Positions 3,886-50,800 of a stretch of 64,000 nt of DNA are shown here, piece by piece (positions within the stretch are counted from its first letter, which is position 1; the number at the start of each line of letters is the position of its first letter). The notes under the pieces were generated by a model. It did no database searches and was not told where the DNA came from. It saw only the letters and a list, made by a program, of their open reading frames with translations. Position numbers and translations under genes: made by a program. This DNA comes from Eledone cirrhosa. Lineage: Eukaryota. The DNA lies in NCBI GenBank assembly GCA_964016885.1, contig OZ024742.1:161634001-161698000 (forward strand), written 5' to 3'.

Positions 3886-3905
3886 AGAAAGCAGTTATTT
3901 CCTAC

Positions 3906-3962: not shown

Positions 3963-4025
3963 CTGAAATTTAATATAAATAGATAATTCAATTTATACAT
4001 AAATTTGCTTATAAAATCACTGAAT

Positions 4026-5899: not shown

Positions 5900-5949
5900 A
5901 TATATATATATATATTAGAATTGTGAGAGTCCTAAATGCAAAAAATAAC

Positions 5950-6190
5950 TGTAATAACAGTTGATCACTATAGATAATAATTGAGAAAATTGTGTACATT
6001 ACCCTTAGAGACAGAGAAAAGAGGACAGAAGAACCTAACATAATTGCACAATATTTGAGAGATATGGGGTTTGTTTCTTTGTAGGTGCCTCTTGTTTCTT
6101 TGTAGGTGCCTCAGTTCACTTTTTCTTTCCTTAAGAGTAAATTACCCAATTTTCTTAACTGTTATCTATGGTGATCAACTGTTATTATAG
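5950..6190. repeat. Degenerate fold-back element
   Basis: taataacagttgatcactatagata / tatctatggtgatcaactgttatta. Confidence 0.6.
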
Positions 6191-6254
6191 AGGTTCCACA
6201 AAACATCCAGCTCACACTGTAAAGTGGCCATGAAAGAGACACGTCAAAAAGCAC

Positions 6255-7215: not shown

Positions 7216-7336
7216 AGATGATTTGGAACTTTCACAATTTTAAATTTCAAACACTGCCAGCACATCAATAATTCATAAAGTTTATAATATATATATATAT
7301 CATCATCATTGTTTAACATCCATTTTAGCATGGGTT

Positions 7337-7382
<46 letters not shown>

Positions 7383-7878
7383 TCCGAAGAGATTGTTTTG
7401 GTAAAAACAGGAGCAAGCAGGAGAAAGCTCTCAACATTCGCAGTTTGTAGCTACGATGGAGATTCAGTATAATAATAACATTAACAAAGATGCTGTCAGT
7501 ATCTTTATTAATGTTATTATAAAAAATGACAAACACAGAGATATAAAAACAGTTAGTATTATTAGGTTCACGCTTTGGATGAAAGAGAAAAAAAAAATTC
7601 AACATATTGGACTTTAGTGCTTCGTCAGGAGAGTACAAGCAGAAAGATTAAATAAAGGGAGACGTGAGTGTGTGTGTTGTTTTTAATTTTTTGTGTGTAT
7701 CACCGTGTATAAAGGTGGGAAGGTCTATACATAGTTTGTTATGGTGTCCAGGTGTGTCTGGCTGTATTAGCATTGTATATGAGTGTCATATGTCAGTGTA
7801 TGTATTAAATATAATAGAATATTGGTGATAAATAAGTATCTGTTAAAATGACATCCAACTCCAAGGTGGACTACTAAC

Positions 7879-7978
7879 CTGTCGCTGTATTTCAATTTCT
7901 CCAGTCAAATATAGGCCTGCTGAAGCAACTCTATGGAAGTAATGTAGAATACAACGCAGTTTGGCACACTGGGATTGT
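7879..7978 (-). CDS. PARG: PARG-like exon
   Basis: ttctag|...|gttagt, phase 2 to 0. QCAKLRCILHYFHRVASAGLYLTGEIEIQRQ matches KLKTLFCYFRRV..PTGLVTFTRQ. Confidence 0.9.
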
Positions 7979-10010
7979 CTAGAAAATTAAACATCCAAAA
8001 TTAGTACAAAACAAAACATTTAACAAGGCACTAACTTTCTCAATAGATATCTGAGATTTTCATATGATGGAACTTTTTGATAATGATATTGCCATAGAGA
8101 TGCAGTGGCTGTGTGGTTAAGGAGTTCACTTCAGAACCACAGGGTTTCGTGTTCAGGTGTGGTACCTTATATAACCTCCTTTATAGTGGTGTCATGATAA
8201 AATGCACCCAGTGCAGTCTGTAAAGTGGTTGGTGTAAGAAAGGGTATCTAGCTAGACCATGCTAGTCATGTCACAGGCACAACTTCACTAGTGCCTGGCA
8301 CTACGAAAAATGCAGCCAGTACTCTCTGTAAAGTGGTTGGCATTGGGAATGGCATTTAAACATAGAAAACCTGCCAAAGAATGGGTTCAGAAGACTCTTC
8401 AGTTGTGTCACAGGCACAACAACCTCCCTAGCACTGATGCCATGATAGAACACACCCAGTACATTCTGTAAAGTGCTAGAATGTATGTGAGATGCAGGAC
8501 CTTGGCTTTGCCTTATCCGAGAGGCTCCAGCAGAAGACACTTCACTTTACTAACATGCCATGTGGTTGCAAAGGAAACTTCTTAACCACACAGCCATGCT
8601 GTCACATATTAAGACACACCATTGCATTAATTATACAATCAAATAGTATATTCTTTAGCTAGTTCCTATCCTTATTTTTTTTAAATCAACAATTTGGCAA
8701 ACCCTGTACTTTCTCTCAGATTGATTCCCTCTAATAACTTTTACTCAAAAATGGTTTGGTAAGTCACTCCAATTCTCACAAGGTAAACTCATCCATGATA
8801 ATGTTGCATCAAGTCCCTCACCCCTTCTTCCCAGAGTAAACGGTGAAGTGTAGTAAAAAAACATGGATCGACACAATCAAGTCTGATCCCAAGCTAATCT
8901 TTGGTTCTTGCTTATATGGTATCTGTCACTGGAATTGAGACTAGCTGACAATATCTGTGACAAAAATCTGTGATAAGTGTATGCGATGCTGTGGATGCAC
9001 CTGTTGGAACCAGCTAAACCCAGCCTGGATGAACGTTGATACAAATAGGAATATCTGACATTCCCAAATGGGGAAGATAGAACCTAAGTGCTCAAATGAA
9101 GCGCAAGGATAAGATAAACACACCTTAGTGAACGCATGTGGCTTAATGGTCATGGTTCTGATTTCTGGCCAGAGCAGTGTTGTATTCTTGACCAAGATAC
9201 CTTAGTTCATGTTGTTTTTCCTGATAGGACTGGAGATCCTTATCATTAAAAAACCTAAGAACTCACCTATGAGATGCAACCTCATAGGAGCCCAGCTAAA
9301 ACTGCATAGGGGTGAGCTGTAAAGCTCATTTTCTTCAAACATATCTTGCTTATCACACAAAATGATTTTAAAGAATAAATGACGATCACAGTAACTCATG
9401 ATAAGAGATCTTACTAAGACAAGAATCAATCCATTGCACTCACCAATAATCGTAACATTTCCAATCCAATCAATGTGTGTGTGTGTGTGTGTGCGACTTG
9501 AAAAAACAAATAAATAAAGCGTATTCGACTAAGAGATTCAGAATTGTCTCCCTTGCTATCAATTATCATTTTATAGAATTTAACAGAAAAGATTTTTTTA
9601 AATGAGAAAGTTGGATAGGAATTTTGGAAGCAATGTTTTACAACTGGATGCCCTTCCTGACACTAATCCTGTTCTTATGACATGCAGGTGTTTCTACTCT
9701 GAATTGAATACACACAGTTTGTGCATGTGTATATAATATATAACTATAACAGTCATTTGCCTTAACTAGAACTTAAATCTAAACCAAAACCATGCTGTCC
9801 ACTAATTCAAGCAAAAGCAAACCATAACCCTTCAATCAACCCTACCCATCAGACAACTACTGCACAAGTCATAAATTGAATTCAAACATGGCCTTCAAAA
9901 CCATACCCCCAGCCAAACAATGACCAACCTGCACCAATTACTGGTATGAAGATGATGGATGTCATCAGGCTGCAGCTGTTGAATTACATAGTTTCTGTAT
10001 TACTCTTCAG

Positions 10011-10051
<41 letters not shown>

Positions 10052-10819
10052 GTGTGTGTCTGTGCGTGTGTGTGGAACCCTGTTGGATTCATCATCATCA
10101 TCATTCAACATCCATTTTACACGCTACCCTGGGTAAGGCATATCAGTAATTCAAAAGGTCCAGCCTTGTTGTACATTGTGTTAATCTGGTTTGGGTTAGA
10201 AGTTAGATTAAAGGTACACATATTTGTGGAATATTCAACCACATACATGTTAATTCATGGGTTGGACGTCCAGTTGATTTAACAACCAAATGCATATTGT
10301 CAAAACCAATAGGAGGATACATTCTGTTTATATATATATATGTAGTTGCTGTGTGTATACACTGCAAATGTATATATATTGGATATATGTGGTTACTGTG
10401 TATAAAAAGGGTGTACAGGTATATATACTGTGTATATGTGGCAGCTGTGTGCATAAAAAGTACATGTCTGTATACTGCATATATGTGGCTAGTGTGTGTA
10501 TAAATACTGTATATATGTGGGTATTGTGTATATATAAAACAAAATATCAATGATATATAAGTAGCTATGTGATATACATATATATGTGCCTGCTATATGT
10601 TTATTTATGTGTATATCTGCCTACTACATGTATATATGTGTATATGTGCCTGTATAGGTGTCAGCTATGTGTATAAAACAAGGTATACATGTGTACATAG
10701 TGTATATATGTGCTTACTTAACTGCTGTATTCTTGAATGAACAAAAGAATAAATGAATTAACATATAAATCTGTATGAACAATAAAGAAAGCAGCAGAAT
10801 GTATGGTAATAATACTTAC

Positions 10820-10961
10820 AGAGGAAGGTATCGAAAAAAGTTAGAGAAATTAATATTATTTAGCCGCAATGTTTTCTCTTTCTTTCTCTCTGGAAACAGG
10901 CACAGAAATGCACATGAAATGATTGCAGACATTAAGTTACGGCTGACTGCAATGCTGTTTG
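10820..10961 (-). CDS. PARG: PARG-like exon
   Basis: caacag|...|gtaagt, phase 1 to 2. TNSIAVSRNLMSAIISCAFLCLFPER..NINFSNFF matches PARG [32 protein letters not shown]. Confidence 0.9.
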
Positions 10962-11149
10962 CTGTTGAAATATAGATGAGAAAATCTATAATTAGTCCTC
11001 TGTGAGGTATAAATAGAAAGTATATGATTCATTAACTTGTTACCAGTGTGTGTGTGTCTGTGCATTCTCATCTTGGTCAATATCTAATGTTTGCTTTTCC
11101 ATGCTGGCATGGGTTGGACATCACAGATAAAGTGACAACATATCATCAT

Positions 11150-11465
11150 CATCATCATTTTACGTCTACTTTTCCCTGCTTGCAAGGGTGGGACGGGTCC
11201 TATTCAGCACAGCATCTCTCCACTTGTCACGGTCCTTCATCATCTCCTCCGTGAGCTTCTGCGATCTGAGGTCAGCTCTCACCACCTCCGCCCATGTTTT
11301 TCGTGGTCTTCCTCTACTGCGTCTTCCTTCTACTGGCATTTCTTGGCACTTCTTTACCCATTGGTCATCCTCCATGCGCATCACATGTCCATACCATCGC
11401 AGTCTTCTCTCCAGCACACTACAATTTATCCCTCTTATACACAGTTTCTCTCTCAACTCATCCAT
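11150..11465 (-). mobile_element. RTE LINE 3' end
   Basis: RRLRWYGHVMRMEDD..GRRSRGRPRKTW and a (GAT)n tail. Same family as 41110-44170. Confidence 0.9.
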
Positions 11466-12439
11466 GTAGATTTGTATTTATTTGATTTTTGCTGCTTAGT
11501 CAGGGAAGAAAGAGCAGTGCCCATGACCCTTTTAAGGAGCTCCAAGCCTGATGGGAGAGAGAGGGATGGAGGAAGGTGTCCCCTAACCCAAGACCTGGTC
11601 AGATTGTGTCTACCCCCCAAGTATGCCAATGGCTCTTTTCAAGATGATATGAGTGGGTGGAAGGCAAGAAACCTGGTCTGAATGCTGGCAACAGAGTGTA
11701 CTTGGCTTTTAAAGGCACCCAAGGGCCAGATGATGATAAGTACAATTAGTTTTTATGTGCTTTTACACACATCAAAGTTTTCTTCTTTACCTTTTTACAG
11801 TTAGTTAGGGAAAGTTAGGCACCGAATTGTCAAAGTCCTTAAAATGTCAGATAGAATGCTCTGTTGGTATTTGTTGAGGTTCTCTGTGCTCTGAGTTCAA
11901 ATCACATCCAAGTCAACTTTGCCTTTCCACCTTTCAAGGTCAAAAAATAAACTAGCAGTCCAATACTAGGATCAATTCTTCCTTTATATCTCTCACTTCC
12001 TCTTTGTCTCTCTTTCTCTGGAAAAAAACCAGTTGGAGAGGGATGGACTGTCAGGTTTAAAAATTCCCATGACACACCATATATCATTATGATGCCGTTA
12101 TGACTCAAGAATTCAGGACCCATGGCATGGCATAGTCAGGGAAGCTGGGAGGTAGGAAAGTACCCTCAAACCATAGACCTGGCCCAAATGCTTGCAACAG
12201 AGTGGAACTCAGCTAAAGGTATCAAAGGTCCAGTATAGCCCATTGATCAATAGTTTGACGTGCAAAGATCAGTGCTTTACTTAGAAAAAAATAAAAACAA
12301 ATAGGGGTTGGGCATCCAGCCACAGAAAATGAGGGTAAAAATAGTCATAACATGCTTATCATTGTTGTATATGTAGATGTGCAATATTTCCTGAAATAAA
12401 GAAATAAAAAAAGGTGCAGAGCACTAAAAGTTGATAGAA

Positions 12440-12830
12440 GCCATGGAGTGGGGGGACCCAAGAAGACCTGGGATGAGGTGATAAAAGCAGCCCTTGCCCA
12501 ATTGCACCTCTCAACGGCAATAACACAAGACTGTGGCCTCTGGCGTCACACAGTAATACAGAAGACCCGACTGCAAAGTGGTCGTGGCGGTGCCATGACA
12601 AAGAAGCACCCAGACCACACTGTAAAGTGGTTGTGTAGGCGCCACGGAAAAAAAGCACCCAACACTCACTGTAAATGAGGTTGATGTTAAGAAGGGCATC
12701 CAGCTGTAGAAATCAAGCCAAAATCAGTTCCCGTATGAGCAAGACAAGGTCACTTGACCTAACATTGCCCACAACAGGACAACCCGTCTAACCCATGCTA
12801 GCATGGAAGAATGGACGTAAAATGATGATG
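12440..12830 (+). mobile_element. RTE fragment plus RTE-tailed SINE
   Basis: PKKTWDEVI remnant followed by the SINE core and (GAT)n tail. Confidence 0.7.
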
Positions 12831-12878
12831 ATGAAAGAAAGGAACAGCTCAGTAAAAAAAAAGTGTCGAGCAACTTAC

Positions 12879-13284
12879 TGCACTGCTTCCTACAAATAGG
12901 GATTCCCTCCTGCGGAAGTAGCTCCTTGATATTGCAGGCCATATCAATAACAGCAGGGAAGATGAAATGCAGAAAGCAGTCCTTTTCATCGATGCTAGCA
13001 ACTTGTTCCAGGAAAATCACAAGGCCTTGATAAACACATGGTTGACTTTCAGCAGTAGAGAGTTCTTTCTGTTGATTACCACTGCTACCTTCATGGTAGG
13101 AGAATGAGGTCGGTGGACCTTTGCTTCTGATCTGTAGAAAAATTTGATGATGGAGCTGGGCTAAACCTTGAGGTGTGGCTCCAGAGCTCTGACAGTAAAA
13201 CTGAAGCTGTAATAGCTGCTGGTTTACAATGTTCCAGTGAGGAAGGTCACATGGGAAAATGACCTTCCTCACACCCATCCTCTC
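12879..13284 (-). CDS. PARG: PARG-like gene, first recognisable coding exon (ATG at 13278)
   Basis: Acceptor tttcag|GAG at 13284 and donor A|gtaagt at 12879. MGVRKVIFPCD..W and FLHFIFPAVIDMACNIKELLPQEGIPICRKQ resemble the PARG accessory domain (human [29 protein letters not shown]). Confidence 0.85.
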
Positions 13285-25545: not shown

Positions 25546-27269
25546 CAATTGACGCACTTGGTGTTGAATTGATGTTTTTGTTTTTTTTTGTTCTCTCGCT
25601 TTGATTATATATTTTTGTGTATTATATTTATAAGGTTCCTAGCAATAATTAATTTATTACATGTATGTACTTATAGCGGAGATACTGGGTTGTATGAATG
25701 TAACAAGGAGACATGGTTTGTGTGTATAATATTTAATTAACAATCATGGATATATATAGAACAGTATAGTTGCCATGTCAAAGTAATAGATGATAGAATG
25801 AAGCAAAGTTAGTAGTTACCGTTTTGATTGCCAGGCAAACGCGAGACGCCTGGCGAAGGCCAGGCGCCGGAAGGGCAAATGAGAGGCAGAGAACTTAAAG
25901 TTGTTAGTTTTATAGGGTTCTGACCGGAAGTTACAGAAAGGGTTCTACTTCCCGTCTAGATGTTGTGAGTCACAACAAGGGAGGCCACTGCTACATAACC
26001 TCCCGCCAGAATTTTAGAATATAAAAATCGAATGAAATATGTAGCAAGTTGGCGAGAATGTTGTAACAGGCATGAAAATTACGACAAAAGAATGTTTGTA
26101 AAAATCAATGATAGATGTCAAGGTAGCCAACGGCTCTTGGCCAGAGAACGACTGGACATCTATCTATCCATCACCCAAAGATACAATGTAATAAAGTAAG
26201 AGAAGAGCTCAAAGTTCAAATGTACAAAATATAGTTCACAGGTGTGCAATCACATGACCGCAGGAGAGAAAGTGTGTTCCAGAGAATGAATGCAGGTGGT
26301 TTCTGTTCTGTGGTATATCGTGAAATTTCCAACCTCCGAATGGATTTTCTCACAGGAAGAGTGCTGCAAAAATAAATTCTCTGGCTTGTTCTGCTGGTTT
26401 TGGTTGTTGGTGAAGCTGTGTTGCTGTGGATGTTGTCTCGCGGAGTGAGCGTATTCGGTGTTTAAATTCACAGTAAAAAAAAAATTTTTCAGAAAAAATG
26501 AGTTGCGCAAAGTGCTAGAAATAACAGCCGAAGTTGAGAATGCGTTGACCAAGAGGCCAGCGACCAAAGAAAAAAAGCATTCTGAATAAATGCGCAGTTT
26601 TCAACGGCAAATTTACGTGGTAAATTTTTAAACCGGCAAATAGGAGAATATAGCTTAAGGCTGAAGAATCCTTGGCGAGAAACGTTATCTCTGGCGTGCG
26701 GCTATCTCTGTGAGTCGAGATATCTCTGTGAGTCGAGAATTTGTGCTGCCTACACGTGCCAATACAAGGTTAAGTTAGGTTGAAAAAATAATATTTCTAA
26801 CGCGCGAGAAAATGATAGTGCAAGTGTGAAAGTGACAATGATGAAAAAGAAAGGCTTCACTTAGCATAATTATTGGTGTGAACTTTTGAAAAAAAAAAAA
26901 AAAAAAAAAAAAAAACTTGAACGATGAAGAAAACGATGAAAAAAAAGGCAATGGTTCATCGAAAATAAATGTTCCTGTTGAAATGTTTTTTAAAAAATAT
27001 CAAATTTCTTTTTTTTTTTTTTTGTTTTGAAAGTGTTCGTTGTAGGAAACAAGAAACATATATATATCGTGAAATGCGACAGTTAATTGATGCGTGAGAG
27101 AAAAAATCTGTCTGTGCGAAAATTTCACATGTGCGTGGTGTGTTCGTTTCTTTTACTGAGTATTTTCATAGTTTGTCAATAAATTTGCTGTGTATTCGTA
27201 ATGTTACTCACACAACACCAGATTCTGCTATTTTTTTCTTTTTTTTTCGGGGTGACCACTTATAACAAA

Positions 27270-27305
27270 GAACGGCTGCGTGTTCGTATCACGTCGGGAT
27301 CACCA
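27270..27305 (+). other. tRNA-Trp 3'-part sequence (extended PBS on minus strand); further copies at 27767-27802(+) and 28331-28366(-)
   Basis: GGCTGCGTGTTCGTATCACGTCGGGATCACCA versus metazoan tRNA-Trp GGCTGCGTGTTCGAATCACGTCGGGGTCA plus CCA. Confidence 0.8.
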
Positions 27306-27406
27306 ATATAGCGAAAATACTGGGTTGTATGAATGTAACAACATTCTCGCCAACTTGCTACATATTTCATTCGATTTTTATATTCTAAAATTCTGGCGGG
27401 AGGTTA

Positions 27407-27747
27407 TGTAGCAGTGGCCTCCCTTGTTGTGACTCACAACCCCAATAGATTAACAACATCTAGACGGGAAGTAGAACCCTTTCTGTAACTTCCGGTCAGA
27501 ACCCTATAAAACTAACAACTTTAAGTTCTCTGCCTCTCATTTGCCCTTCCGGCGCCTGGCCTTCGCCAGGCGTCTCGCGTTTGCCTGGCAATCAAAACGG
27601 TAACTACTAACTTTGCTTCATTCTATCATCTATTACTTTGACATGGCAACTATACTGTTCTATATATATCCATGATTGTTAATTAAATATTATACACACA
27701 AACCATGTCTCCTTGTTACATTCATACAACCCAGTATCCCCGCTATA
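27407..27747 (+). repeat. Internal inverted LTR copy (341 bp) followed by 18-nt PBS at 27749-27766
   Basis: Reverse complement of 28386-28726. TATA-like CCCTATAAAA and a GCCTGGC-CTTC-GCCAGGC hairpin. Confidence 0.9.
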
Positions 27748-27803
27748 TTGGTGACCCCGACGTGATGAACGGCTGCGTGTTCGTATCACGTCAGGGTTAC
27801 CAA

Positions 27804-28329
27804 TATAGCGAAGATACTGGGTTGTATGAATGTAACAAGGAGACATGGTTTGTGTGTATAATATTTAATCAACAATTTAACAGTATAGTTGACATGTCAA
27901 TGAATAAACGAAAGAATGAAGCAAAGTTAGTAGTTACCGTTTTGATTGCCAGGCAAACGCGAGACGCCTGGCGAAGGCCAGGCGCCGGAAGGGCAAGTGA
28001 GAGGGAGAGAGCCGAAGGCTATTCGTTTTATAGGGCTCTGCCGGAAGTTACAGAAAGGGTTCTACTTCCCGTCTAGATGTTGTTAATCTATTGGGGTTGT
28101 GAGTCACAACAAGGGAGGCCACTGCTTCCCTCTCACTTGCCCTTCCGGCGCCTGGCCTTCGCCAGGCGTCTCGCGTTTGCCTGGCAATCAAAACGGCAAC
28201 TACTAACTTTGCTTCATTCTTTCGTTTATTCATTGACATGTCAACTATACTGTTAAATTGTTGATTAAATATTATACACACAAACCATGTCTCCTTGTTA
28301 CATTCATACAACCCAGTATCTTCGCTATA
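27804..28329. repeat. Two subtype-2 LTR copies: 27804-28126(-) and 5'-truncated 28127-28329(+)
   Basis: Both share diagnostic indels (caatttaacagtatagttgacatgtcaatgaataaacg) absent from the other three LTRs. Confidence 0.85.
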
Positions 28330-29744
28330 TTGGTAACTCTGACGTGATACGAACACGCAGCCGTTCATCACGTCGGGGTCGCCAATATAGCGGGGATACT
28401 GGGTTGTATGAATGTAACAAGGAGACATGGTTTGTGTGTATAATATTTAATTAACAATCATGGATATATATAGAACAGTATAGTTGCCATGTCAAAGTAA
28501 TAGATGATAGAATGAAGCAAAGTTAGTAGTTACCGTTTTGATTGCCAGGCAAACGCGAGACGCCTGGCGAAGGCCAGGCGCCGGAAGGGCAAATGAGAGG
28601 CAGAGAACTTAAAGTTGTTAGTTTTATAGGGTTCTGACCGGAAGTTACAGAAAGGGTTCTACTTCCCGTCTAGATGTTGTTAATCTATTGGGGTTGTGAG
28701 TCACAACAAGGGAGGCCACTGCTACATACTATTTAATCTTATATATTTGTTATATGATAATTGCGAATTCTTAGTTGTGGAAATGACATCAAGTATAAAA
28801 TGTATGATATTATCGAAAGTATTCAATTTACACTTGAATTTGCTCATGACTTATACTTTTATTTCAAATATTTTACTACTCACATTTACTCTGTATCCTT
28901 TACTCCTAAACACTTCACATATGTTTACACGATTACTTATCTAATACTACAAGCCTCGCACTCATAACCAAATAAATATATTAACCGATTTTCCCCACCA
29001 CAGCATACACAACTTAGTTACAAATCATTTTTTATATCGTGATGTCGCCAGGATAACGTCAAATAGATGACACAGAGTTAACTGAACTCATGAACAACTT
29101 AAAAAGATATCTAGCTAATGTACCACCACTAACCCTAACAAGAAAAAAAAATCCCATTAATTGAAACAGCGCAACATAAAAGTACGAAAATACAAACATT
29201 ATTGTTTTATCGGTAGAGGGTCGGACTCCATGCTTTGACGTATAGAGTTACGGCCATTGCCATTCTGAGTTCAAATCCCGCCGAGGTTAACTTTGCCTTT
29301 CATCCTTACGGGGTCGATAAAATAAAGTACCAGTAATGCACTGAGTAATTATTGTTTTATTACCAGTGGTAGCGGGGGAGGGCTGGCATAGGGAATGGTC
29401 AGATGAGCATGACAATAAATAAACCCATCAGACAAGATAAGGTCGAAATGCCTGGACTGCTGATAAAACAAGAACGAACTGAGAACTACCACATTCTAAA
29501 CCCACCCACTACCATACAGAGAGAAATTGAATGACGGCTACCACCACCTATCATATACTGACCGAATTTCGGAATACTAACATCTCATGTCCCATAGTTA
29601 GCATATCATATACTTGATCATATTTATTATTATTCTCCTCTTTCTTATGATGTCGTGGTAGATCTCACATAATCTTTGACTAATGCCTCGGAAATGTACA
29701 TAACAGGCATTATTTAATAAACTAAAGTATGGAAATGTAGAACT

Positions 29745-37370: not shown

Positions 37371-38599
37371 TACTAAATCTACAAAAATTTAGTAACTAAA
37401 TCATTGTAACTAAAAACTACAAAGCATGTTGTCCAACACTCCTATGACCCTACCAATTCACTCAGGTAGTAACATGATAAACACAAACATAAATAACTTC
37501 AGCAAGGTGAATACAATCAATGAAAGTTAAATGTCTTAGATACAAATATAAGATATGAACTGCTTGTATTTTGATTGGTTATCTGATACTCCAATGTAGG
37601 TGGCCATCTGTAGTTTCTTATGATTTCCAGGGTGAGATGAACATGGTTATAAGGGAATCTTAGGTATCATTTAATATGATAAATGTCAAGTTTATAAAGT
37701 TCCCCTGCACAATGTTTATAAATAGTAAAATGCTTACACCCCATCCCTCTACAAGAAAATGTGAGATAGACACATAGAAAGAGTACAGAAGTATATTTAG
37801 TAGTACATCTTGAATACATACCTTCAATATATATATATATATATATATATGATAGTCTTGCGGGATTTTTTTAAAACTATCATATAATAGACATCACACC
37901 ACTCGGCTTGTTTTCCTCTAGTCTCCCTTTTTACCTTTTCTACGTCCCACTGTCCTTTTTTGTCTGAACTACAGTCCTTATCATTCCCTTCTGTTTTACT
38001 ATTTCTCTTCTTTCTATATTTTTTTCTCCTTTGGTTAAGTCTTAGCACACTCTATATTTGTGTAATTTGCCCAAAGACATAACTTGTCTCTACCTGTTTT
38101 GTTAGGTCCCAATGTGCACTGGAATAAATGGTATCAACCTTAATATACTGAAACCATAGTGATTTCCAGAAGTTGACTGAAGAAATGAGCCTGCCCATTG
38201 ATTTTTCCATTGTCTTTGTCCTATGTGCCCCCTATTTTGAATATATATATATATAACCCTTACTAGCATGAAAAATGGATGTTAAATGATGATGATAATG
38301 ATGATATATATATATTTGTATTTTGTGCTCATAATTTGGCATTAATTGGATCGCCTTCCTATCACTAGCACCACTTTACAGCATGGACTGGGTGCTTTTA
38401 TTCATGCCACAGACACTAGAGAGGTTGTCTTACTGGACTCTGAGGCCCTCATTTATAATTCGAAATTATTATATTTACTAAAATTCTGGTCATATAATTA
38501 TGAATTCATCAAACAGAAATAGTTAAAAAATATATTTAAAGTAAGTGTTAAAAAAACTCGCCCCATTCCTCAATGCATTGTGAGCCTTGTAATAATAAA

Positions 38600-39250
38600 A
38601 ACAGGACTATAATGAACAAGAGCAGGCTGAGGACCGAACCCTGATGTACTTGTATCTGGAATTCCTCACTAAACTCCATTCCTACCCTCACTTTACTGAC
38701 AGCACCTCTGTACAAAGCTTGCACTGTCCTCACAAGCCATTCCTCAACACCTAGTTTCCTTAGGGACCACCAGATGACAGATCGAGGTACCCTATCAAAG
38801 GCCTTCTCTAGGTCAACAAAAGCTGAGTATAGTGGCTTATTCTTCTCTAAGAACCTCTCTTGTAGTTGTCTCACTAAGAAAAGGGCATCTGTTGTACTTT
38901 TCCCAATGTCAATATATGTGAACGACCAAGCATGGATGAGTTCAGAGAGAAACTATGTTTAAGAGGGATAAGTTGTAGTGTGCAGGAGAGAAGACTGCGA
39001 TGGTATGGACATGTGATGCACATGGAGGATGACCGCTGGGTAAAGAAGTGCCAAGAAATGCCAGTAGAAGGAAGACACAGTAGAGGAAGACCACAAAAAA
39101 CATGGGTGAAGGTGGTGAGAGCAGACCTCAGATTGCTGAAGCTTACGGAGGAGATGACAAAGGACCATGACAAGTGGAGAGATGCTGTGCTGAATAGGAC
39201 CTGTCCCACTCTTGCAAATGGAAAAGCGGACGTAAAATGATGATGATGAT
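38600..39250. mobile_element. Rearranged RTE copy: RT piece 38600-38904(-) fused to 3' end 38905-39250(+)
   Basis: FVDLEKAFDRVPR on the minus strand and RRLRWYGHVMHMEDD on the plus strand. Highly similar to 42140-42443 and 41110-41455. Confidence 0.85.
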
Positions 39251-39354
39251 GTATGTAAAAGGTAAACAGAAATAACAACACAATCAGTACAGTATATGGA
39301 AAGGATAATATATATATATATATATATATATATCTAGGGCAGTTAAAACTCCCG

Positions 39355-39404
<50 letters not shown>

Positions 39405-39412
<8 letters not shown>

Positions 39413-39848
39413 ATGCTTTGGGAGGGTCATGTTGACAATAAGAAACACACGCACCAGTTGCTTTCACTTCAATTTATTATAAATTAAATTTATAAATTTA
39501 AGAATTTATAAATTTCCGGTTGGTTGGTTCCACAACCAGACGATTGTTCATATATGTGTTACCCGGATGTAACACATGCGCAAAATAAGCACACAACACA
39601 CACAAAAACAAAATGGCGTAGGACAGAACAAAGGAGAGGCACAAAAAGAAAGAAAAGAATCCCCAGTCACTGAAGAGGTCACAGAATGTGTGACGAAAGA
39701 ACTTTGACAATATATGAACAATTGTCTGGTTGTGGAACCAACCAACCAACCGGAAATTTATAAATTTAATTTATAATAAATTGAAGTGAAAGCAACTGGT
39801 GCGTATGTTTCTTATTGACAACATGACCCTCCCAAAGCATAACAATAT
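39405..39848. mobile_element. Fold-back element with hammerhead motif
   Basis: About 135-bp inverted arms. 39666-39708 reads GTCA-CTGAAGA-G-GTCACA-GAATG-TGTGAC-GAA-AG-AA-CT-T-TGAC. Confidence 0.8.
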
Positions 39849-40028
39849 TGGTTTCAACACACGTTTTCAGATAAAGAATCTTGCTAAACAAATTCAGAAA
39901 CGATATATATATATATATTTATATAAAGTATGTCTCCCTACATGCAAAATGCATATAGGGACACATGTATTATCCAACCGTATGCCAATGTAGTTCTATG
40001 GCAGGTTAATAAATTAACGAGCCAGAAC

Positions 40029-40385
40029 ATATATAATCAAGGTTTAGCAAATAAGAAAAAGTTTTAAAATAAATTTCTTTTTGCAGTACATTGACCTTTC
40101 CGCCCCTGCCTTCTATCTTTACACACGGCACTAGACAAAATTGTTTCTTCATCATACATTCTCATCTCAGGAACAGTTCTGCGTGGCGCCAGTTCGTGAT
40201 TTGAACTCGGGAATTTTATATTCTCCGAGCGAGAAGAACCCTCTGACGAAAGTCATCTTCTCAATAAATTATCCATTTATTTTGAGACTTGAAACCGTAC
40301 GGTAAGGGTAATTACAGAAGGTACAGTGAACTTTTTAAAATTTCTTTTAAAACTTTTTCTTATTTGCTAAACCTTGATTATATAT
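40029..40385. mobile_element. Fold-back element with hammerhead motif
   Basis: About 45-bp inverted ends. 40238-40309 reads ACCCT-CTGACGA-AAGTC...GACTT-GAA-ACCGTACGGT-A-AGGGT (GUA site). Confidence 0.8.
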
Positions 40386-40392
40386 ATATATA

Positions 40393-40961
40393 TGGGATAA
40401 CAAGTTATCATTTTAGGTAATCCAGTTAGAGGTTGTGAGTACTCTGTACTATGGACAGTTTTAACGTACAGCGTTATTTGACTCAACAAGGTTTCCTTAG
40501 TTAGGTAGCGAGTTTGCGAGAATTCCCATACAGATCATTCTTGGAGTAATAGTAGTGAAAGAGTGAAGAATAACATGGTTGGCTGTACAAAATACAGTGT
40601 GTGTATCTGATCAAATCATCGGAATACTGTATTCCGATGATTTGTTCAGAGACACACACTGTATTTAAGGTCGAGTGACGCAATTTCGAGAGATTAGTGG
40701 CCTTTGGACTCACCTGTTCAATGAAACAATTGTTAATACTGTAAATAAAACCCTTTTTGTACAGCCGACCATGTTATTCTTCACTCTTTCACTACTATTA
40801 CTCCAAGAATGGTCTGCATGGGAATATGGGAATTCTCGCAAACTCGCTACCTAACTAAGGAAACCTTGTTGAGTGAAACAACGCTGTACGTTAAAACTGT
40901 CCATAATACAGAGTACTCACAACCTCTAACTGGATTACCTAAAATGATAACTTGTTATCCC

Positions 40962-40962
<1 letters not shown>
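40393..40962. mobile_element. Long-TIR fold-back element / MITE in (TA)n
   Basis: About 200-bp inverted arms tgggataacaagttatc... / ...gataacttgttatccca, with an internal hairpin at about 40592-40666. Confidence 0.85.
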
Positions 40963-40994
<32 letters not shown>

Positions 40995-41018
40995 TATATC
41001 GGGAGTTTTACCTGCCCT

Positions 41019-41055
<37 letters not shown>

Positions 41056-41109
41056 CCCTTCCATATACTGTACCGATTGTGTTGTTATTTCTGTTTACCT
41101 TTTACATAC

Positions 41110-44100
41110 AACATCATCATCATTTTACGTCCGCTTTTCCCTGTATGCAAGGGTGGGACGGGTCCTATTCAGCACATCTCTCCACTTGTCACGGTCCTTT
41201 GTCATCTCTTCCATGAGCTTCAGCAATCTGAGGTCCACTCTCACCATCTCCGCCTATGTTTTTCGTGGTCTTCCTCTACTGTGTTTTCCTTCGACTGGCA
41301 TTTCTTGGCACTTCTTTACCCAGCAGTCATCCTCCATGTGCATCACATGTCCATACCATCGCAGTCTTCTCTCCTGCACGCCACAACTTATCCCTCTTAA
41401 ACATAATTTCTCTCTCAACTCATCCATGCTTGGTCGTTCACATATATTGACATTGCACATCCAACGGAGCATGCTTGCTTCATTTCTCTCCAGTCGTCGC
41501 ATATCCTCTGCAGTTACTGCCCATGTCTCACTACCATGCAGCATCGCGCATCTCACACAGGCATCATATAACCGTCCTTTCATACGCAGGGAGAAACCCT
41601 TCTTTGTCAGCAGAGGAAGCAGCTCCCTAAACTTCTTCGAACCCGTCCTTATTCTAGATACTATGGGCTCGGAACACCCCCCCCCCCTGCTAATCTGATC
41701 ACCTAGGTACCGGAAGCTATCAACCACTTCTATAGAACCTATCTGCATTTGAAAAATGTGTATATCAATTTCCCTGTCCAATTTCCCTGTACATCTACTG
41801 CATACATATTTTTTCCTACCTGTTAGTTTGCCTGCTATCCCACTACATCTCTTGTGTACCCAAGATCTGCATTGTGTACATTTTATAGAATTTATGCCAG
41901 TTCCTTTTCTGCATATCGAACATGGCCATTTCCCTGACGGAATCAGAGTTTTGTCTTCTTTTCTACTTATCAACACTTTTGTTTTAGCTAGGTTCACTCT
42001 CAGCCCTCTTAATTCTAACTGCTGTTTCCATAGCCATAATTTATTCTCTAGCTCCTCTACTGATTCTGCTATAAGGACCAGAACGTCAGTATAGAGAAGT
42101 TCCCATGGGCAGTCTTAAACTCCTCTGTTATGACTTGGAGGACTATAATGAACATGAGCGGGCTGAGGACCGAACCCTGAAGTACTCCTACTTCTGGAAT
42201 TCCTCACTAAACTCCATTCCTACCCTCACTTTACTGACAGCACTTCTGTACAAAACTTGCACTGTCCTCACAAGCCATTCCTCAACACCTAGTTTCCTTA
42301 GGGATCACCGGATGACAGATCGAGGCACCCTATCAAAGGCCTTCTCTAGGTCAACAAACGCTAAGTATAGTGGCTTATTCTTCTCTAAGAACCTCTCTTG
42401 TAGTTGTCTCACTAAGAAGAGGGTATCTGTTGTACTTTTCCCAGGCACAAAACCAAACTGCAGCTCATCTAGTTTGACCCTTTCTCTAATTAGTTGCGTT
42501 AATATCCTTTCTGCCACTTTCAAAACTTGATCCATCAGTTTTATGCCCCTATAATTGCTCCTCTCCAGAGCATCCCCTTTACCTTTGTAGCAATTTATGA
42601 GAATACTGCTGCACCAGTCTTTGGGTATGACACCGCCATATATAGCTTGATTGATGATGCGTGCAACCAGTTTAGTGCCTACGTCCCCTGATACCTTCAG
42701 CATCTCAGCAACTATCCCCGATGGTCCAGCGGCCTTAGCATTTTTTATTTCCTTAATTGCTTCTTGGACCCTATATTCGTCAATCTCAATAGCTGGTCCC
42801 TCTGTCGGATCTACTGGGGGTAATTTCTTTCTCTCCCATTCGTTCTCTACATTCATCAGTCTCTCATAATGACATTTCCAGGCCTCCTTTTTTTGATCAT
42901 TCGTGACACTAAGTACACTGGCATCATTCCGGACACACTGCCTTGCAATGCGGAACACTGCACGTCTCTGATCTTCCCATTGCAGAACATTGGCAAACCT
43001 CCTACTATCAGCCTTCCTGTGTGCTAAGTACACCTGATGTCTAGCTTCTCTCTTAGCGGCTGTGTATCCTTCTCTACTCCCACCATTTTTCCAAGCATTC
43101 CATGCTAGTCTTTTGTCTCTAATGGCCCTATCTACCATGCTGTTCCACCACCAGGTCACTCTCTGTCTGGTTGGAGCTCTGCACCAGCCACAAGTTTCTT
43201 CAGTAGCCTGCAGTAAGTTGTTATGTAAGAAATTCCAGTTATCATATATGTCATACGACTCTAAATCGTCTTCTTTTTCGTCATATACATCTTGAAGGGA
43301 TTTCCTAAATTTATATTTTAGTGAAAGGTCTTTTAGCTTCCAGACCTTTCTTTTCCACACCTTCCTGTATGTCTCATTCTGTCTCTTGCTTACTAAGATG
43401 TCACTAACGATTAACCTATGCTGTGGGGTACATTCTTCCCCAGGGTATGCCTTAGTATTAGACACCATCAGTCTGTCTCGCTGCCTAATTAGCAAGAAGT
43501 CAATCTGGGTTATGTGCTCGTCTGATGTGTAGGTTATTAGGTTGGCAGGTTTCTTGAAGTTAGTGTTGCAAATGGTTAGTGCACTTGCATCACAAAATTC
43601 AAGAAGCCTCACTCCTTCTTCATTTCTTGAGCCATAACTGTGCCCACCATGTATCCCAGTGTATCCATCCTGGAGCTGTCCAACATGACCATTGAAGTCC
43701 CCTGCTTGCATAATGATGTCTCTGTCCTCTGTCATTGTGGCTGTTTGTAAAAGTTGCTCATAAAAGCAGTCTTTCTCTTCTTTACCTAGGCCTGCCTGGG
43801 GAGCATAGACAGAGATGATTGTCAGTAGTCTCCCACCTACAACTAATCTAAGCTTAATTATTCTATTACTAACTCTAACTACCTCTATTGTCTTATCAAT
43901 CCATCTCTCAGCCAGTAAAACGTTTACCCCACCTAACCTATCATCATTACCCACCCAGAAAAGCTTATATCTAAGATGTTTGCCTGTGATTAGTCTGAGA
44001 TTAGATCTACCTGTTATAGTTCCAACATTAAGTGTGGCAACTCTGAGATGCGACGTTTTCATACTCTTGTTCTTGTTCCTGTTGTGTGATTGCTTGATGA

Positions 44101-44170
44101 TGGTCCGGGGTTCTCGCACATGGCCGCACCAGCCACCCCACTACCGTGCGCAGCCCTAACATGGTTAGTG
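41110..44170 (-). mobile_element. Near full-length RTE-clade LINE (APE + RT), inactivated
   Basis: APE motifs TLNVGT, SVYAPQ, GDFNGH, QIDF. RT motifs NYRGIKL, QFGF, FVDLEKAFD. Catalytic YADD reads YTDV. Stops, small deletions and a (GAT)n tail. Confidence 0.93.
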
Positions 44171-44280
44171 TTATTGCTGTTTATGCAGTTGTTGTTGTGC
44201 AGTTGCTTGATGACATATGCATATATGTAAACATGTGTGTGTGCCTGTATATATATATAGATATATATATATATAGATAG

Positions 44281-44382
<102 letters not shown>

Positions 44383-44810
44383 TAATATATATCTTCATGA
44401 TTTAATGTTCAGTGTGTGTTTCTGTGTGTGTGCGTGTGATGTGCGTGCACACACATAAATAAATAAATAAATAAATGACATACATATTTCAATATAAATC
44501 TCCCTTAGGCATTAGCATTTATAAAGCCTAATATACCTAGTTAAGCCCCTTTTGAAATAGTACATTTCAGACCTATTTAAACCAATTAACAATGGATGAC
44601 TTTGTTCCAGTAAGTTCAACCTTCCATCTGTTTGTTTAAGAAGAATCATATACTCCCAGTTTATTTATTTCTCTGTTGCTCAACAGCTTTTATTGAGTTA
44701 TTAAATATGTTGTAGATATTTTATAAAACCAAATGTAGGTGGTCGTAAATATGTCATGTGCTTAGATATTCTTTGAGCATAAGATATGTATCTATAATGT
44801 ATATATTCAT

Positions 44811-44867
<57 letters not shown>

Positions 44868-44887
44868 TCTATAATGTATATATTCAT

Positions 44888-44932
<45 letters not shown>

Positions 44933-44956
44933 CCTAATAATAATAATAATAATAAA

Positions 44957-47801
44957 AACCTTCTCCGATCTGACATAGAAATTTTAACAAACTATAAAGT
45001 AGGTGAACATGTTAAACAAACTAAACTTAGAAAATTGAAAAAAAAGTACAGTATAAGATCAACATGTGACATAGACATGCTGATAGAAACAATCAAGCAA
45101 AAAGTGTCGGCCAAAGCTGCTCGTATAAGGCGCTTTGAAAAACGATCTAGATTCTATAAGGACAATAATATGTTCAAAAACAACCAAAGAAACTTCTACA
45201 GAAAAATTGGTAAGTCAACAATAACTGCTAAATCAATACCACCCAAGGAGGAAGTGCAAGAATTCTGGGAAAAGATCTGGGCCGAAGAAAAAGTTCATAA
45301 CATACATGCCCCATGGATAGACAGACAAATGAAAGAAACAGCTCACCTTGAAGAACAAACATGGGAAAATATAACAGTTGAACAGCTGCGCTTGGCTCTA
45401 AGAAAAACCAGCAAATGGAAATCCCCAGGAAAAGACAAAATACAAAACTTTTGGATAAATGCCTTCACAGAGTCTCATGAGCTGTTAGCCCAACTTTACA
45501 ATGAAATAGTTAAGGAGCCAGAAAAGATACCATCATGGCTAGTTAACGGCATTACATTCCTGCTACCGAAGAATGATGAGACAAACAATCCCAAAAATTA
45601 CAGACCGATAACCTGCTTGACCACAATGTATAAAATTTTAACATCAGTCCTAACTGAATACACATATGACCACCTGATAACAAATGACCTATTTCCCATT
45701 GAGCAGAAAGGGTGTAAACGAGGCTCATATGGCTGTAAGGATCAGCTTCTGGTTAACAAAATGATACTGGAAGATTGTCATAATAGACACAAAAATCTAT
45801 CGATTGCTTGGATAGATTATAAAAAAGCATTTGATAGTTTGCCACACAGTTGGATTGAAAAATGTTTAGAGATTTTCAAAATATCCCCCGTTGTCAGGAG
45901 GTTTTTGTCATTCAGTATGAGGACATGGAGAACGACACTCCTTTTGAATAGTGAAACAAAATCACTGGAAGCTGGAGAAGTTAACATTAATTGTGGAATT
46001 TTTCAGGGTGACTCTTTATCACCGCTTTTATTCTGCATCGCACTTATACCATTAAGTAAAATGCTCAATGAAACAAAACATGGATATAGAGTCTATGACA
46101 AAACCATTAATCACCTGTTCTACATGGATGACCTGAAACTATTCGCAAAAAATGATGAACAATTGCAAGGGTTGTGAAGCAGTTCAGTGATGACATTAAA
46201 ATGGAGTTTGGACTGGATAAATGCGCCAAAGCAACGTTCACCAGAGGAAAGCTGCTGAAGAGTCCAGACATTAATCTTGATCGGGGGAACGTGATAAGAG
46301 AGCTTGATCAAGAACAAACTTACAAATATCTAGGTGTTTGTGAAGGAGACGGAATCAAGCACTCGACAATGAGGGAAAGGATAAGGAAGGAATGTTACCG
46401 CAGAGTCAGAGCAATCTTAAGAACGGAATTGAATGCAAGGAATAGGATCGATGCCATAAACACGCTTGCCATACCAGTAGTAACCTATAGTTACAATGTC
46501 ATCAACTGGTCAAGCACAGAGATCCGTAGGCTCGATACAAAAATCCGAAAATTCTTAACCATGCACAGAATGCATCACCCTAAGGCAGACATAGATAGAA
46601 TATATCTCCCTAGGAAAGAAGGAGGACGTGGGTTAATCCAGTTAGACATTGCGTTGAAAACTGCAACAATTGGATTATCCACATATCTAAGGGAATCACA
46701 TGATTGGATGATCAAACTCGTTTTGAAACACGAAAGCACCAAAAGATCATATTCCATTACAAAAGATGCACAAAGATACAGTAATGGACTACAAATTTCA
46801 GAAGTCCCATTTACTGCTGAAATGGAAAACACAGAAAAAGCAAAGCAGGTAAAAGTAACTGCAAAGAAAGAACTGCTACAGAAACTGGCTAAGAAATGGC
46901 AAGAAAAGCCTCTGTATGGAAAATACCCAGAGCGAGCTAACAATCCTGATGTTGACAAAGCTTTAACCCATCAGTGGTTGGCATCCTCTGGACTGAAATC
47001 GGAGACTGAAGGACTGATTATATCCGCACAAGATCAGTGTCTGCCAACAAAAAATTACCAAGCCAACATAATAAAAAATGGGTGCAGCCCATTATGCCGT
47101 GTATGCAAAAAACAACCAGAGACCATTGACCATATAATTTCAATGTGCAGTCCTATAGCTCCAACCGAATACCTAAACAGGCATGACAGAGCTGCACAAT
47201 ACATACATTGGATAATGTGTAAGCATTTTGACCTGCCCCATCAAAAGAATTGGTGGGAGCATCAACCACCTCCCATACTTGAAAAAGATCACATCTCAAT
47301 CTTGTGGAACTTTAGCATCCAAACAGACCGAAAAATAGATGCAAATAGACCTGATATAATATTGAAGGACTTTCAAAGGAGGGTATGCCTGCTAATTGAT
47401 ATGTCTGTTCCAATAGACAAGAATGTATCTATAAAAACATTTGAAAAATTGAGCAAGTATAAGGACCTGGAGATAGAAATTGGAAAAATGTGGAAATTGA
47501 GAACTAAAACAATACCAGTGGTTGTAGGCGCTCTGGGAATGATACCTAAGGGGTCTAACGACTACTTATCGCAAATCCCAGGAAACCCGCGTATAGGAGA
47601 AATACAAAAGATAGTACTAATGGGAACTGCCCATATACTAAGGAAGATCCTGTCAATATAAGTACATCACAAGTCTAAACACTAAGGATGCATGTGTGAA
47701 TATGTGTGTTCTTTCTTGAACATGGCGGACCTTGTTGTCTCTTGAGGTCACTGGTTGTGACTTGGTGATAACTCGTATAAACATAAAGCAAGATAAATGC
47801 A
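44957..47801 (+). mobile_element. Dong/R4-clade non-LTR retrotransposon, 5'-truncated (RT + CCHC + restriction-like endonuclease)
   Basis: NYRPITCL, WIDYKKAFDS, IFQGDSLSP, YMDD, CRVC..ETIDHIISMC, RHD, RPDII, IDMSVP, KLSKY. One frameshifting deletion near 46175. (TAA)n on both sides. Confidence 0.92.
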
Positions 47802-47820
47802 AATAATAATAATAATAATA

Positions 47821-50800
47821 ATGTTTTCTTTATTAACCACAAGGGTTTACATAAAGTAGACATTAAGGACAGTACAGGACAATACAGGACGGTACAAATG
47901 GGCATTTCTGCGTGTAAAAAACAGAGGATGTAATAAAATAACAAAGAAAAATTCCCCAATAGGGGGGAGACTTCCGAGGGACATTTGTGGAGAAAGCCCA
48001 TTAAAAGACCACAGTGACCCTGACCACCAGGGCAAGTGCCCTCTCCCAGTTTTCCACCTTTAATTTACAGACACATACTCAGAGAAGGCCCATTCATTCG
48101 GGCCATACTTGCCTCTCTCACCCATCTTTCAACAAAATGCTGGGAAGAGAGCACTTCCCTCTCTACCCTGATTTTCCTTTTCAAATGAAATTTGAAAAAG
48201 TTAATCAGGGCATCACCGAAGAGGTAAGTGCTCGTCTTCAGCCCTTTCAAACGTGTCCACCATACTATCTCTTTCGCCATGGCCACCAGACAGATAAAAA
48301 CTGCCTGCCCTTCCCGGCTAAAGGAAGAGGGCGGGGCAATCCTCACGATGGACTCAGCTGATAGCTGGATCCGTCCTACACGTGACAGCAGGTGTTCGAC
48401 ATAAACCCACAAGTCAGCAATGCTCGGACACTGGACGAGTGCGTGCAGGACGGTTTCGTCGCCCTGTGCGCATCTCTGACATGCCCGGCTGACGGCACCT
48501 CCATGCCTGTAGAGTTTATCCCGAACTGGCAAAGCACCCCGGTAGCACTGCCAGGCCAGGGATTTCTGGAAGTTGTCCATAGGCCGCGGCCCGAAAGTCC
48601 TTCCGAAAAGATTGGCTAGTTGATTTTCGTCGACGCCTAGAGTTTCTCCAAGTACGTCGTCGCTCTTACCCTCTACTAATCCCCTATAGAACGCCAAGGT
48701 GGAGTTTCCACCGATCACATTGCCCGATTGGTCGAGGGCTGTGAGCGCCTGAAGACATTCCAGTCTCCAAGCGCTCCTTCTCGGTCTTCACTTGACCCAG
48801 GACTGCAGCTCCGTCAAGGAGACGAGCTGGGGAAAAACGTGTCTAGCAAACGGCGACCACACCTGATCACCGTCGAGGAAGAGGTGGAGATGTCGTAGCC
48901 TGAGCGCGTGTCTGCGCATCATCAGCCACGGCATGCCCAGCCCTCCACGTAGCGGGTGTTGACAGCAGATGGACCGCCTGACCATCGGAGCGCGTCCCTT
49001 CCACAAGAAGCAAAAGAGCAAACGCTCCAGCGCAGTCAGGCGGGGCTTAGAACAAGGTACGACGGTCAGGCGGTAGTAGATGACGGACGCGATGTACGCG
49101 TTAGCCACCTCCGCTCGACCTTTCAGGGATAGCTTCCTCTCGGCACATTTCTGGGTGAGAGAAGCCACCCTGCTCGTCACCTCGTCCCAGTTTTTGTCCG
49201 TCTGGAGGTCTGGACCGAACCAGACCCCTAGCAATTTAACCGGTCCGTCCGTCCAGCCTCTGAAGACGGGCCCAAAGCCAGCCGCCCTCAGGACTGCCGC
49301 TAGGTAACGATGGTCGACCCTATCGAAGGCTTTCGACTGATCTAAATTGATCAAAGACCCACCCGTGCCAGGTTCCCTAGCTACCCTCTCATGTATCGCA
49401 TGAGGTGGAGGTTGTCGTGAATGGATCTGTCGGGAATGGCGCATGTCTGTTCCTCTCCCACCAGACCACCAACGATAAGCGCCAACCTCTTTGCTAGCAC
49501 CTTGGCCAAAATCTTGAACTCTGTGTTTAGCAGAGTTATGGGCCTAAAATTATCTATGTTATCCCCCTTGTTCGGATCCTTTCTCAGCAGCGCCACCGCT
49601 CCTCGGCTTACAGAGCTGGGAATTCTCCCGTTCTGTTGCCAGTTGCAGTAGACGTCCGCCAAGAGGCCTCCGAACAAGTCTGGCATTTGTACGTAAAGTT
49701 CATAGGGCAGACCATCCAAACCAGGCGATTTACCCCTTGTGCAGCCAGTCATTGCCTCCCGTACTTCAGCGGCTGTTATCGGCTTTTCGCAACACTCCGC
49801 TTCAGTGGCCGAGAGCCGCGGCAGTCCGTCGAGGTAGACACTAAAGTCCATCCCTCGATCCGGCCCGCCGCTGCCCCCGAACAGCTGTGCGAAGTGTTGC
49901 TGAAAAGCTTCACACATTTTCCCGGGATAGAGTAGCATGCGCCCGTCGTGGTCCACCAAAGACCGGATCGTGGCTTTGTTGCCATGACGCGCCTCCGCCA
50001 CTCGGGCCCATTGAACGGCTTTCGTCCCCTCGTGTCTGAGAGCACGCACCCTAGCTCTGACAACGCAGCCTTCGTGCTTTGCATTGAAGAATTGGTCAAG
50101 GGCCGATTTCGCCGCAAGTACGTCGGTCGCGATGCCTTTGCTAAGCGCCTCGTCTAATTTTCTAACTAATTCTCCCTCTGCTCTATTTTTCTCTATTGCT
50201 AAAGCCTTACTAAACCTAATGGACTCTATTCTAATTGCTCTTTTCAGAGCAAACCACCACTTGTTGTTGATGATGGCCCCCGTCAACGCCCGCTTAACTA
50301 GTTCGCTAATCCGGTCTCTGTAGGCCTTGCGCGCCGGTAAGGATGCGTTTAGCTTCCAGTAGTCGGGTCCTCGTCTATGAAGCCTATCTAAGTTAAGCAC
50401 ACAGATCACGAATTTGTGGTCTGTGTAGCTGACTATCTTGAATTGTGGACAGCCTATGCTAGACCTATCTATTTCCCTACAAAATACTCTATCTATATAT
50501 GACCTGGATGACCCTATCCGATTTGTCCAAGTCCACATTGGCATATTCGGGAAATCCAATCGGTACCTGTCAGAAAGTTCAAAACGCCTGAGCAGGTTGG
50601 TGAGGCTCTTGCACCCTCCTCCCCTATCCGCTGATCCCACACAGTCCCAGCGTGCATCTAAGATCCCGTTCCAGTCGCCCACTAACACTAAAGAGCGGGA
50701 CGTTCCAAGAAAGGTCTCCAGACGCCGGAAGAGATCAGGCCGCCCTGCTCCTGTCGGGGCATAGACGGCCACTAGCCTGAAAGCTTGCCCGTCTCCGCTG

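Follow-up and report, generated by a model that had tools for sequence, protein, structure and literature searches.

The 64-kb window of the Eledone cirrhosa genome analysed here (64,000 nt of contig OZ024742.1, positions 161,634,001 to 161,698,000) contains at 25668..28730 a long terminal repeat (LTR) element in which five LTRs and one LTR stub are enclosed by a single target-site duplication (TSD), TACT. Coordinates of the element are positions within the window, and its parts are listed in Table 1. Read on the minus strand, the order is TACT, LTR E, an 18-mer of tRNA type, a reversed copy of the 36-nt extended primer binding site (PBS36), reversed LTR D, LTR C and PBS36, followed by a reversed 18-mer, reversed LTR B with its polypurine tract (PPT) flank, the stub, PBS36, the interior, LTR A and TACT. 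There is one interior only, and the inner LTRs are inverted and joined at their primer binding sites (PBSs), which is not the structure of two complete cores around a shared LTR. By self-comparison and alignment every part lies where an earlier note on this DNA, made from the sequence alone, had placed it, and the mixture of two LTR subtypes that it described (A/B/E versus C/D) is confirmed. The stretch that it called a tRNA-sense 36-mer is the reverse complement of the family's own PBS36, with bases absent from the tRNA-Trp genes of the genome; these family-specific bases rule out a fresh tRNA copy.

LTRs E and B are equal at 341 of 341 bases, while LTR A is separated from them by one substitution and a 17-nt deletion flanked by ACAAC repeats, so that the outermost LTRs, A and E, are nearly identical. 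LTR C differs from E by 20 substitutions and 15 gap columns and from D at one of 203 positions. Over 602 bases the two palindrome arms (27405-28006 and 28127-28728) have three differences, all of them on the D/E side. The 35-nt stub is unlike A at two positions and unlike B/E at three, and because it differs from all of them a third template is likely. The interior, 1274 nt including the PPT, has no open reading frame (ORF) of at least 120 aa, and parts of it are 81-89% like the 3' interior of a coding family, x, described below. Joint J3 has an imperfect microhomology of 2-3 nt. The start of LTR D, 26 nt after the TATA box, fits a transcription start; the C6 locus, in contrast to this, ends elsewhere. 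No tRNA was found in the window by ARAGORN.

The joint J consists of an LTR and 18 tRNA-exact bases fused to the reversed 36-nt PBS of the family. The sequence across 27766/7 gave 11 matches at 8 loci in the 3.0 Gb genome searched and its reversed control gave 0; with a free gap of 0-10 nt allowed at J, 10 of 10 matches were in one register. A search restricted to the family's own LTR end, followed by the exact 18-mer and a base other than A, gave nine matches, comprising one ordinary copy, five J joints at four loci and three other landings. The corresponding search with LTRs that end in TAAAG yielded 49 matches, of which 34 were read and two were already known; eight of the 49, at six loci, are J, and the 13 unread matches are excluded as J by the next base. 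J is found at 10 loci in total. Eight have a perfect 4-bp TSD (TACT, TGTC, GAAG, AGTT, GATG, CATA, GCTT and ACAT), one has a TSD with three of four bases and one a degraded TSD. All differ in architecture. The LTR before the 18-mer belongs to family x at four loci, to a third family, y, at two and to the own family at four, and since the preceding LTRs come from three families the joints are independent events. All 11 of the 18-mers from the first search carry both tRNA-diagnostic bases. J is used at four of seven aberrant own-family loci (p about 2e-5 against 38 ATC sites). This hot spot, genome-wide and common to the helper families, was missed in the earlier note. Of the junctions that the note singled out for a genome-wide search, 27766/7 recurs with TSDs, while J1 (27340/1) and J3 (28126/7) occur once each. 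Because of these single occurrences the palindrome is not a spreading family, contrary to one of the suggestions made there.

A later chromosomal rearrangement of a normal insertion, through fold-back during replication or through recombination among nested copies, is very unlikely. At 10 loci one joint connects different families, each time within a single TSD, LTRs B and E do not differ, the 18-mers are of tRNA type while most family copies are not, and inner TSDs are lacking; such a history is favoured by the microhomology at J1 and J3 and by the tendency of quasi-palindromes to fold back. The lack of inner TSDs also rules out nested insertions.

TSD-bounded palindromes are present elsewhere, with a length of 770 bp at locus L132 and 1270 bp at C2:283 Mb. 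The latter locus (L042+L043, C2:283227550-283232638) is a chimera of 5.1 kb, bounded by a GATG duplication, that has a helper sequence at one end and a family sequence at the other. It contains 2.9 kb of helper interior and three J joints, and opens with a snapped-back helper LTR end leading into the 18-mer and J. Two different J chimeras (L044 and L045, C1:204.39 and 204.43 Mb) lie 41 kb apart in the same tandem-repeat array. At L134, L139 and L140 strong-stop ends land elsewhere via 3-7 nt of microhomology, giving TSD-bounded deletion or hairpin elements.

For two 4-mers taken at random from the window, the chance of matching as the TACT copies do is 0.005. An empty allele, in which 25667 is joined to 28727 with one TACT, is found in contigs of two runs, X1 and X4, the latter being another sample. 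Depth is 12.4 in X1 and 4.2 in X4, the shorter side of the join has 32 and 35 letters, respectively, and the joins in both share 4 letters. Because the empty site reduces to a single TACT, as the earlier note had expected, the whole unit entered by one integration, and because contigs of two samples carry this site the insertion is polymorphic and not fixed. Run X1 is possibly from the sample that was assembled. Related organisms are represented by runs X5 and X6, which have family-like pieces and no flank-to-flank joint among the matches listed. No RNA data set was among those listed as containing the sequence. In runs X1-X3 a loose end of 12 nt before 27749 matches the end of the helper LTR, which gives only a hint that J exists in reads.

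An assembly fold-back chimera is an extremely unlikely source of the inner palindrome. The arms are not identical, the outer arm ends precisely where the LTR begins, next to a TSD borne out by the empty allele, and the palindromes at L132 and C2:283 Mb are comparable and TSD-bounded; what fits a chimera is that the inner joints were not seen bridged in contigs and that X1, possibly the assembly's own sample, has the empty allele. We give almost no credence to the functional reading of the earlier note, that of a spreading family or a silencing locus kept by the host. It would gain from the predicted folding of a 27407-28726 transcript into a near-perfect hairpin of about 600 bp (-1205.7 kcal/mol) and from the apparent editing of family RNA at least once, at L132, but J1 and J3 are single-copy and the insertion is not fixed.

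Table 1. Parts of the nested element, with positions in the window
Feature	Position	Strand	Basis or remark
TSD TACT, left copy	25668..25671	.	retained once in empty allele
LTR A, 3' terminal, subtype 1	25672..25995	-	alignment
Non-coding interior with PPT at about 25996-26010	25996..27269	-	ORF scan, comparison with family x
Partial anti-PBS "pad", first 22 nt of interior	27248-27269	-	family-wide
PBS36, complementary to tRNA-Trp 3' half	27270..27305	-	family trait
35-nt LTR 3' stub	27307..27341	-	template other than A/B/E
Joint J1	27340/1	.	LTR nt 307; 7/8-nt microhomology; single-copy
Interior 3' end and PPT, inverted copy	27341..27406	+	self-comparison, alignment
LTR B, inverted, identical to E	27407..27747	+	alignment
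tRNA-exact 18-mer, strong-stop end	27749..27766	+	match to tRNA-Trp genes
Hot-spot joint J	27766/7	.	18-mer end fused to reversed PBS36
Family-type PBS36 of LTR C	27767..27802	-	alignment
LTR C, subtype 2, without first 3 nt (TGT)	27804..28126	-	alignment
Palindrome spacer, 120 nt	28007-28126	.	between arms, within LTR C
Joint J3	28126/7	.	single-copy
LTR D, inverted 3' part of subtype 2	28127..28329	+	begins 26 nt past TATA box
Family-type PBS36 of LTR D	28331..28366	+	alignment
Second copy of joint J	28366/7	.	genome search with joint sequence
tRNA-type 18-mer following LTR E, 1 substitution	28367..28384	-	alignment
LTR E, 5' terminal, begins exactly at TGT	28386..28726	-	alignment
TSD TACT, right copy	28727..28730	.	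supported by empty allele

The search with the family LTR gave 1997 first-look candidates, of which 40 were scored and 30 loci read. These 30 are solo LTRs or plain 2-kb elements with the order LTR-PBS36-interior-PPT-LTR, and since the plain copies carry the 36-nt PBS it is a trait of the family. With two LTRs, a PBS, a PPT, a TSD and no coding frame the family has the traits of a non-autonomous LTR retrotransposon. The last bases of the genome's tRNA-Trp genes are exactly complementary to the 18-mer; this match and the comparison of PBSs bear out the earlier proposal of 18-mers as strong-stop ends with tRNA-Trp as their template. In the first 100 of 413 matches to the LTR-end-plus-PBS pattern, 80 PBSs are of the family type, with two differences from the tRNA and neither tRNA-diagnostic base, 10 are tRNA-exact, and 9 and 1 are intermediate. 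The tRNA base at PBS position 5 is present in 19 of these 100, far below the half expected under an inherited tRNA copy (p about 3e-10). No tRNA-Trp gene variant with both family PBS bases was found among the first 100 of 117 matches.

Directly after PBS36 the pad is found in 441 copies, starting with ATCGC in 81 of the first 100, and it is kept across LTR subtypes that are only about 73% alike. Pairing of the pad with the PBS is predicted for the RNA, and the pad can also pair with the 3' end of the 18-mer and its 5' part. In a ranking by duplex strength of the 39 ATC sites that two natural copies have on their two strands, the pad came second, behind the true minus-strand PBS, and first among the plus-strand (RNA-strand) sites. 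The pad looks like the remnant of a second LTR end with its PBS. Other LTR families with a tRNA-Trp PBS carry tRNA read-through past A58 (L108, L110, L117, L118, L124-L126, L128, L135 and L136); some of these copies have a changed base at A58, and several end at tRNA positions 29-39. The family's PBS36 likely arose from such read-through. Other variants seen were three LTRs arrayed in tandem, a PBS duplicated in tandem and an LTR subtype whose 3' end is duplicated (L092, L090, L007, L009, L010 and L027).

Family x is a 6.1-kb element with a 1051-aa frame for reverse transcriptase (RT), RNase H and integrase, which are in Gypsy order in a Pfam scan of the L086 pol frame. Its PBS is the exact tRNA-Trp 18-mer in L086 and has small insertions in L087 and L088. 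A CHCC-type Gag motif, CX2HX9CX3C, is present in two of the three copies read, and all three have a 4-bp TSD and TGT..AAA/ATA ends. PMC2582038 describes the CsRn1 clade (CsRn1, PwRn1 and AgCR) by a tRNA-Trp PBS, a 4-bp TSD and LTR ends TGT..ATA/TGT..AAA, and family x matches these traits, as it also has the CHCC-type Gag motif and Gypsy pol; the CsRn1-type affinity suggested in the earlier note is supported by these traits. The window's family differs from the clade in being non-coding and in having the 36-nt PBS and the pad. The PPT region and parts of the 3' interior of x are similar to the non-coding family, and TSD-bounded chimeras of the two are found at four loci, from which we infer that they share particles. 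Judged by these sequence traits, the likely helper of the non-coding family is a CsRn1-type Gypsy element, family x.

From the anatomy, the TSD, the empty allele, the recurrence of J and the tRNA-type 18-mers described above, we infer an order, a direction and an RNA template for the origin of the element. It is a single polymorphic insertion with a J-type core, and it probably formed in a helper particle by dead-end plus-strand strong-stop DNA mis-priming on co-packaged family RNA, and the landing just past PBS36 on this RNA is likely a fixed spot. A stop at m1A58, as given for HIV-1 in PMC8599865, is expected to leave an LTR with exactly 18 bases of the tRNA. For Ty3, PMC5371799 describes a first plus-strand strong-stop DNA that is displaced and accumulates as a dead end, with the PBS inherited from RNA. 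A displaced tRNA copy and a PBS inherited from RNA fit the present family because it keeps two PBS mismatches while the J 18-mers are of tRNA type.

In the proposed sequence of events a tRNA-primed minus strand would first copy LTR A and the interior, then the PBS and 35 nt of an LTR end. After a microhomology switch onto minus-strand DNA near the PPT, copying would continue through the flank and LTR B into 18 nt of the attached tRNA and halt at tRNA A58. The 3' end of this 18-mer would anneal to the pad of a subtype-2 RNA, and PBS36 and LTR C would be copied as far as nt 4, leaving an end without TG. This end would be joined at LTR position 121, either by self fold-back or to a second chain consisting of E, 18-mer, PBS36 and D that was made via the same hot spot. 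Finally E, a PPT-primed strong-stop DNA, would give a proper end and the integrase would insert the whole. The end of LTR C would be unusable until E was added because its first 3 nt are missing, and at least three templates would be involved because the stub differs from A, B and E.

A cluster of substitutions at L132:4474-4509 (C2:372.13 Mb) bears on the template. The J-side PBS36 has six A-to-G changes and nothing else compared with its sister PBS (five if the tRNA-diagnostic site is dropped), and this variant occurs once in the genome. The three LTRs of the locus are without difference up to position 349, and the last 20 nt of the LTR beside J derive from another subtype. To judge from this pattern, the cluster is likely the result of adenosine-to-inosine (A-to-I) edited RNA having been reverse transcribed for about 55 nt from J. 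This animal group is known for heavy A-to-I editing.

Several points weigh against mis-priming on RNA as set out above. The joints J1, J and J3 of the window are bridged by no read or contig among the matches listed, where the pieces are 40-80 nt. There is no A-to-G skew at the other J loci, so that L132 is the one locus that speaks for an RNA template. The 19 of 100 PBSs with the tRNA base mean that tRNA inheritance is reduced and not absent. The duplex ranking took its energies from DNA-DNA and RNA-RNA pairs and not from hybrids, left template folding aside and covers just two natural copies that are closely related; the count of four in seven loci needs an exact 18-mer and omits aberrant products continuing with A. 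The joining at LTR position 121 has just the 2-3 nt of imperfect microhomology, and its two forms are indistinguishable. Primer and template strand, moreover, cannot be told apart from the product. An opposite polarity in the same particle, in which a nascent plus strand ending in PBS36 and ATC jumped onto the 3' end of strong-stop DNA as template, would yield the same sequence; the ATC microhomology works in both directions, and the PBS36-bearing LTR is terminal at three loci. This polarity is nevertheless unlikely, as it gives no reason for a fixed stop at +39 and leaves unexplained the 7-bp anchor of the pad, the A-to-G cluster beside J and the snapped-back helper end at C2:283 Mb.

Mis-priming by strong-stop DNA has partial parallels in known systems, compared here by the accessible parts of the papers cited. 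Multi-LTR insertions with one TSD are described from plants (PMC1950507; bioRxiv 10.1101/452573; review PMC6894440), and such template-switch products share with the window element the extra LTRs inside one TSD, an origin during or right after reverse transcription and integration in one piece. Those in PMC1950507 and 10.1101/452573 have three LTRs joined through LTR homology within a family, whereas the window element has inverted LTRs that meet at their PBSs, at a fixed base and between families. With Ty1/Ty3 (PMC5371799) the family would share displaced tRNA-bearing strong-stop DNA, and a PBS inherited from RNA fits the 80 of 100 mismatched PBSs; in the yeast elements, however, 12 nt are copied and the product accumulates in particles, and priming on RNA or integration is not described in that part of the paper. 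TRIM elements, which are miniature retrotransposons with terminal repeats, and large retrotransposon derivatives (LARD), including Helenus (PMC10886601), are likewise non-coding LTR elements with PBS, PPT, 4-bp TSD and a Gypsy helper. Helenus (TRIMp3) has a tRNA-like RNA polymerase III promoter inside its LTRs, while in the window's family, with an element of about 2 kb, the tRNA-related stretch lies outside the LTR as an antisense PBS extension. Autointegration (PMC7197481) also gives inverted segments in LTR-element cDNA, but its joints use the processed LTR end; J, J1 and J3 are not at an intact processed LTR end, by which autointegration is ruled out. A PBS-to-PBS inverted joint was not found in a literature search that had supplements and most subscription papers outside its scope. 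The base-exact, cross-family hot spot is a new form of the template-switch insertions already known.

The window locus is most likely a functionless accident, which is favoured because the allele is polymorphic and single-copy. It is doubtful that PBS36 and the pad are a selected weapon of a parasite, capturing helper strong-stop DNA as a tRNA-free primer and poisoning or recombining helpers, with palindromes that would seed double-stranded RNA against the guild of tRNA-Trp Gypsy elements. The predicted binding to the tRNA primer is -49.9 kcal/mol for the family with PBS36 and pad, against -32.8 kcal/mol for the helper PBS.

A PARG-like gene lies at 2-13278 on the minus strand, with eight coding pieces matching two octopod proteins; its exon had no PDB match. 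The insertion is 12.4 kb upstream of the PARG-like ATG and on the same strand. Because a splice acceptor is found just before this ATG a 5' intron runs towards the insertion, which possibly lies within it. No host exon was found in 76 of the 80 frames between 13.3 and 41 kb, and one frame gave an RT hit. Several RT and endonuclease frames of non-LTR type (long interspersed nuclear elements) are present at 38551-51000 and 62809-63486, and the window has many further copies of the 143-nt repeat that lies at 29208-29350.

The finding is the hot spot and not the single locus, and it makes strong-stop mis-priming testable. Reverse-transcription intermediates of animal Gypsy elements are rarely seen, and here they are kept as integrated fossils. 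The joints argue that the route of yeast Ty3, in which the tRNA copy is discarded, also runs in an animal Gypsy lineage, and that the discarded strong-stop DNA is reactive and has a fixed landing site. Beyond the shared motifs, the chimeras argue that the non-coding family is packaged with at least two other families, and at C2:283 Mb the integrase accepted ends of two different families. It is also argued by these joints that errors of this kind can repeatedly supply long inverted repeats, from which silencing and editing may start.

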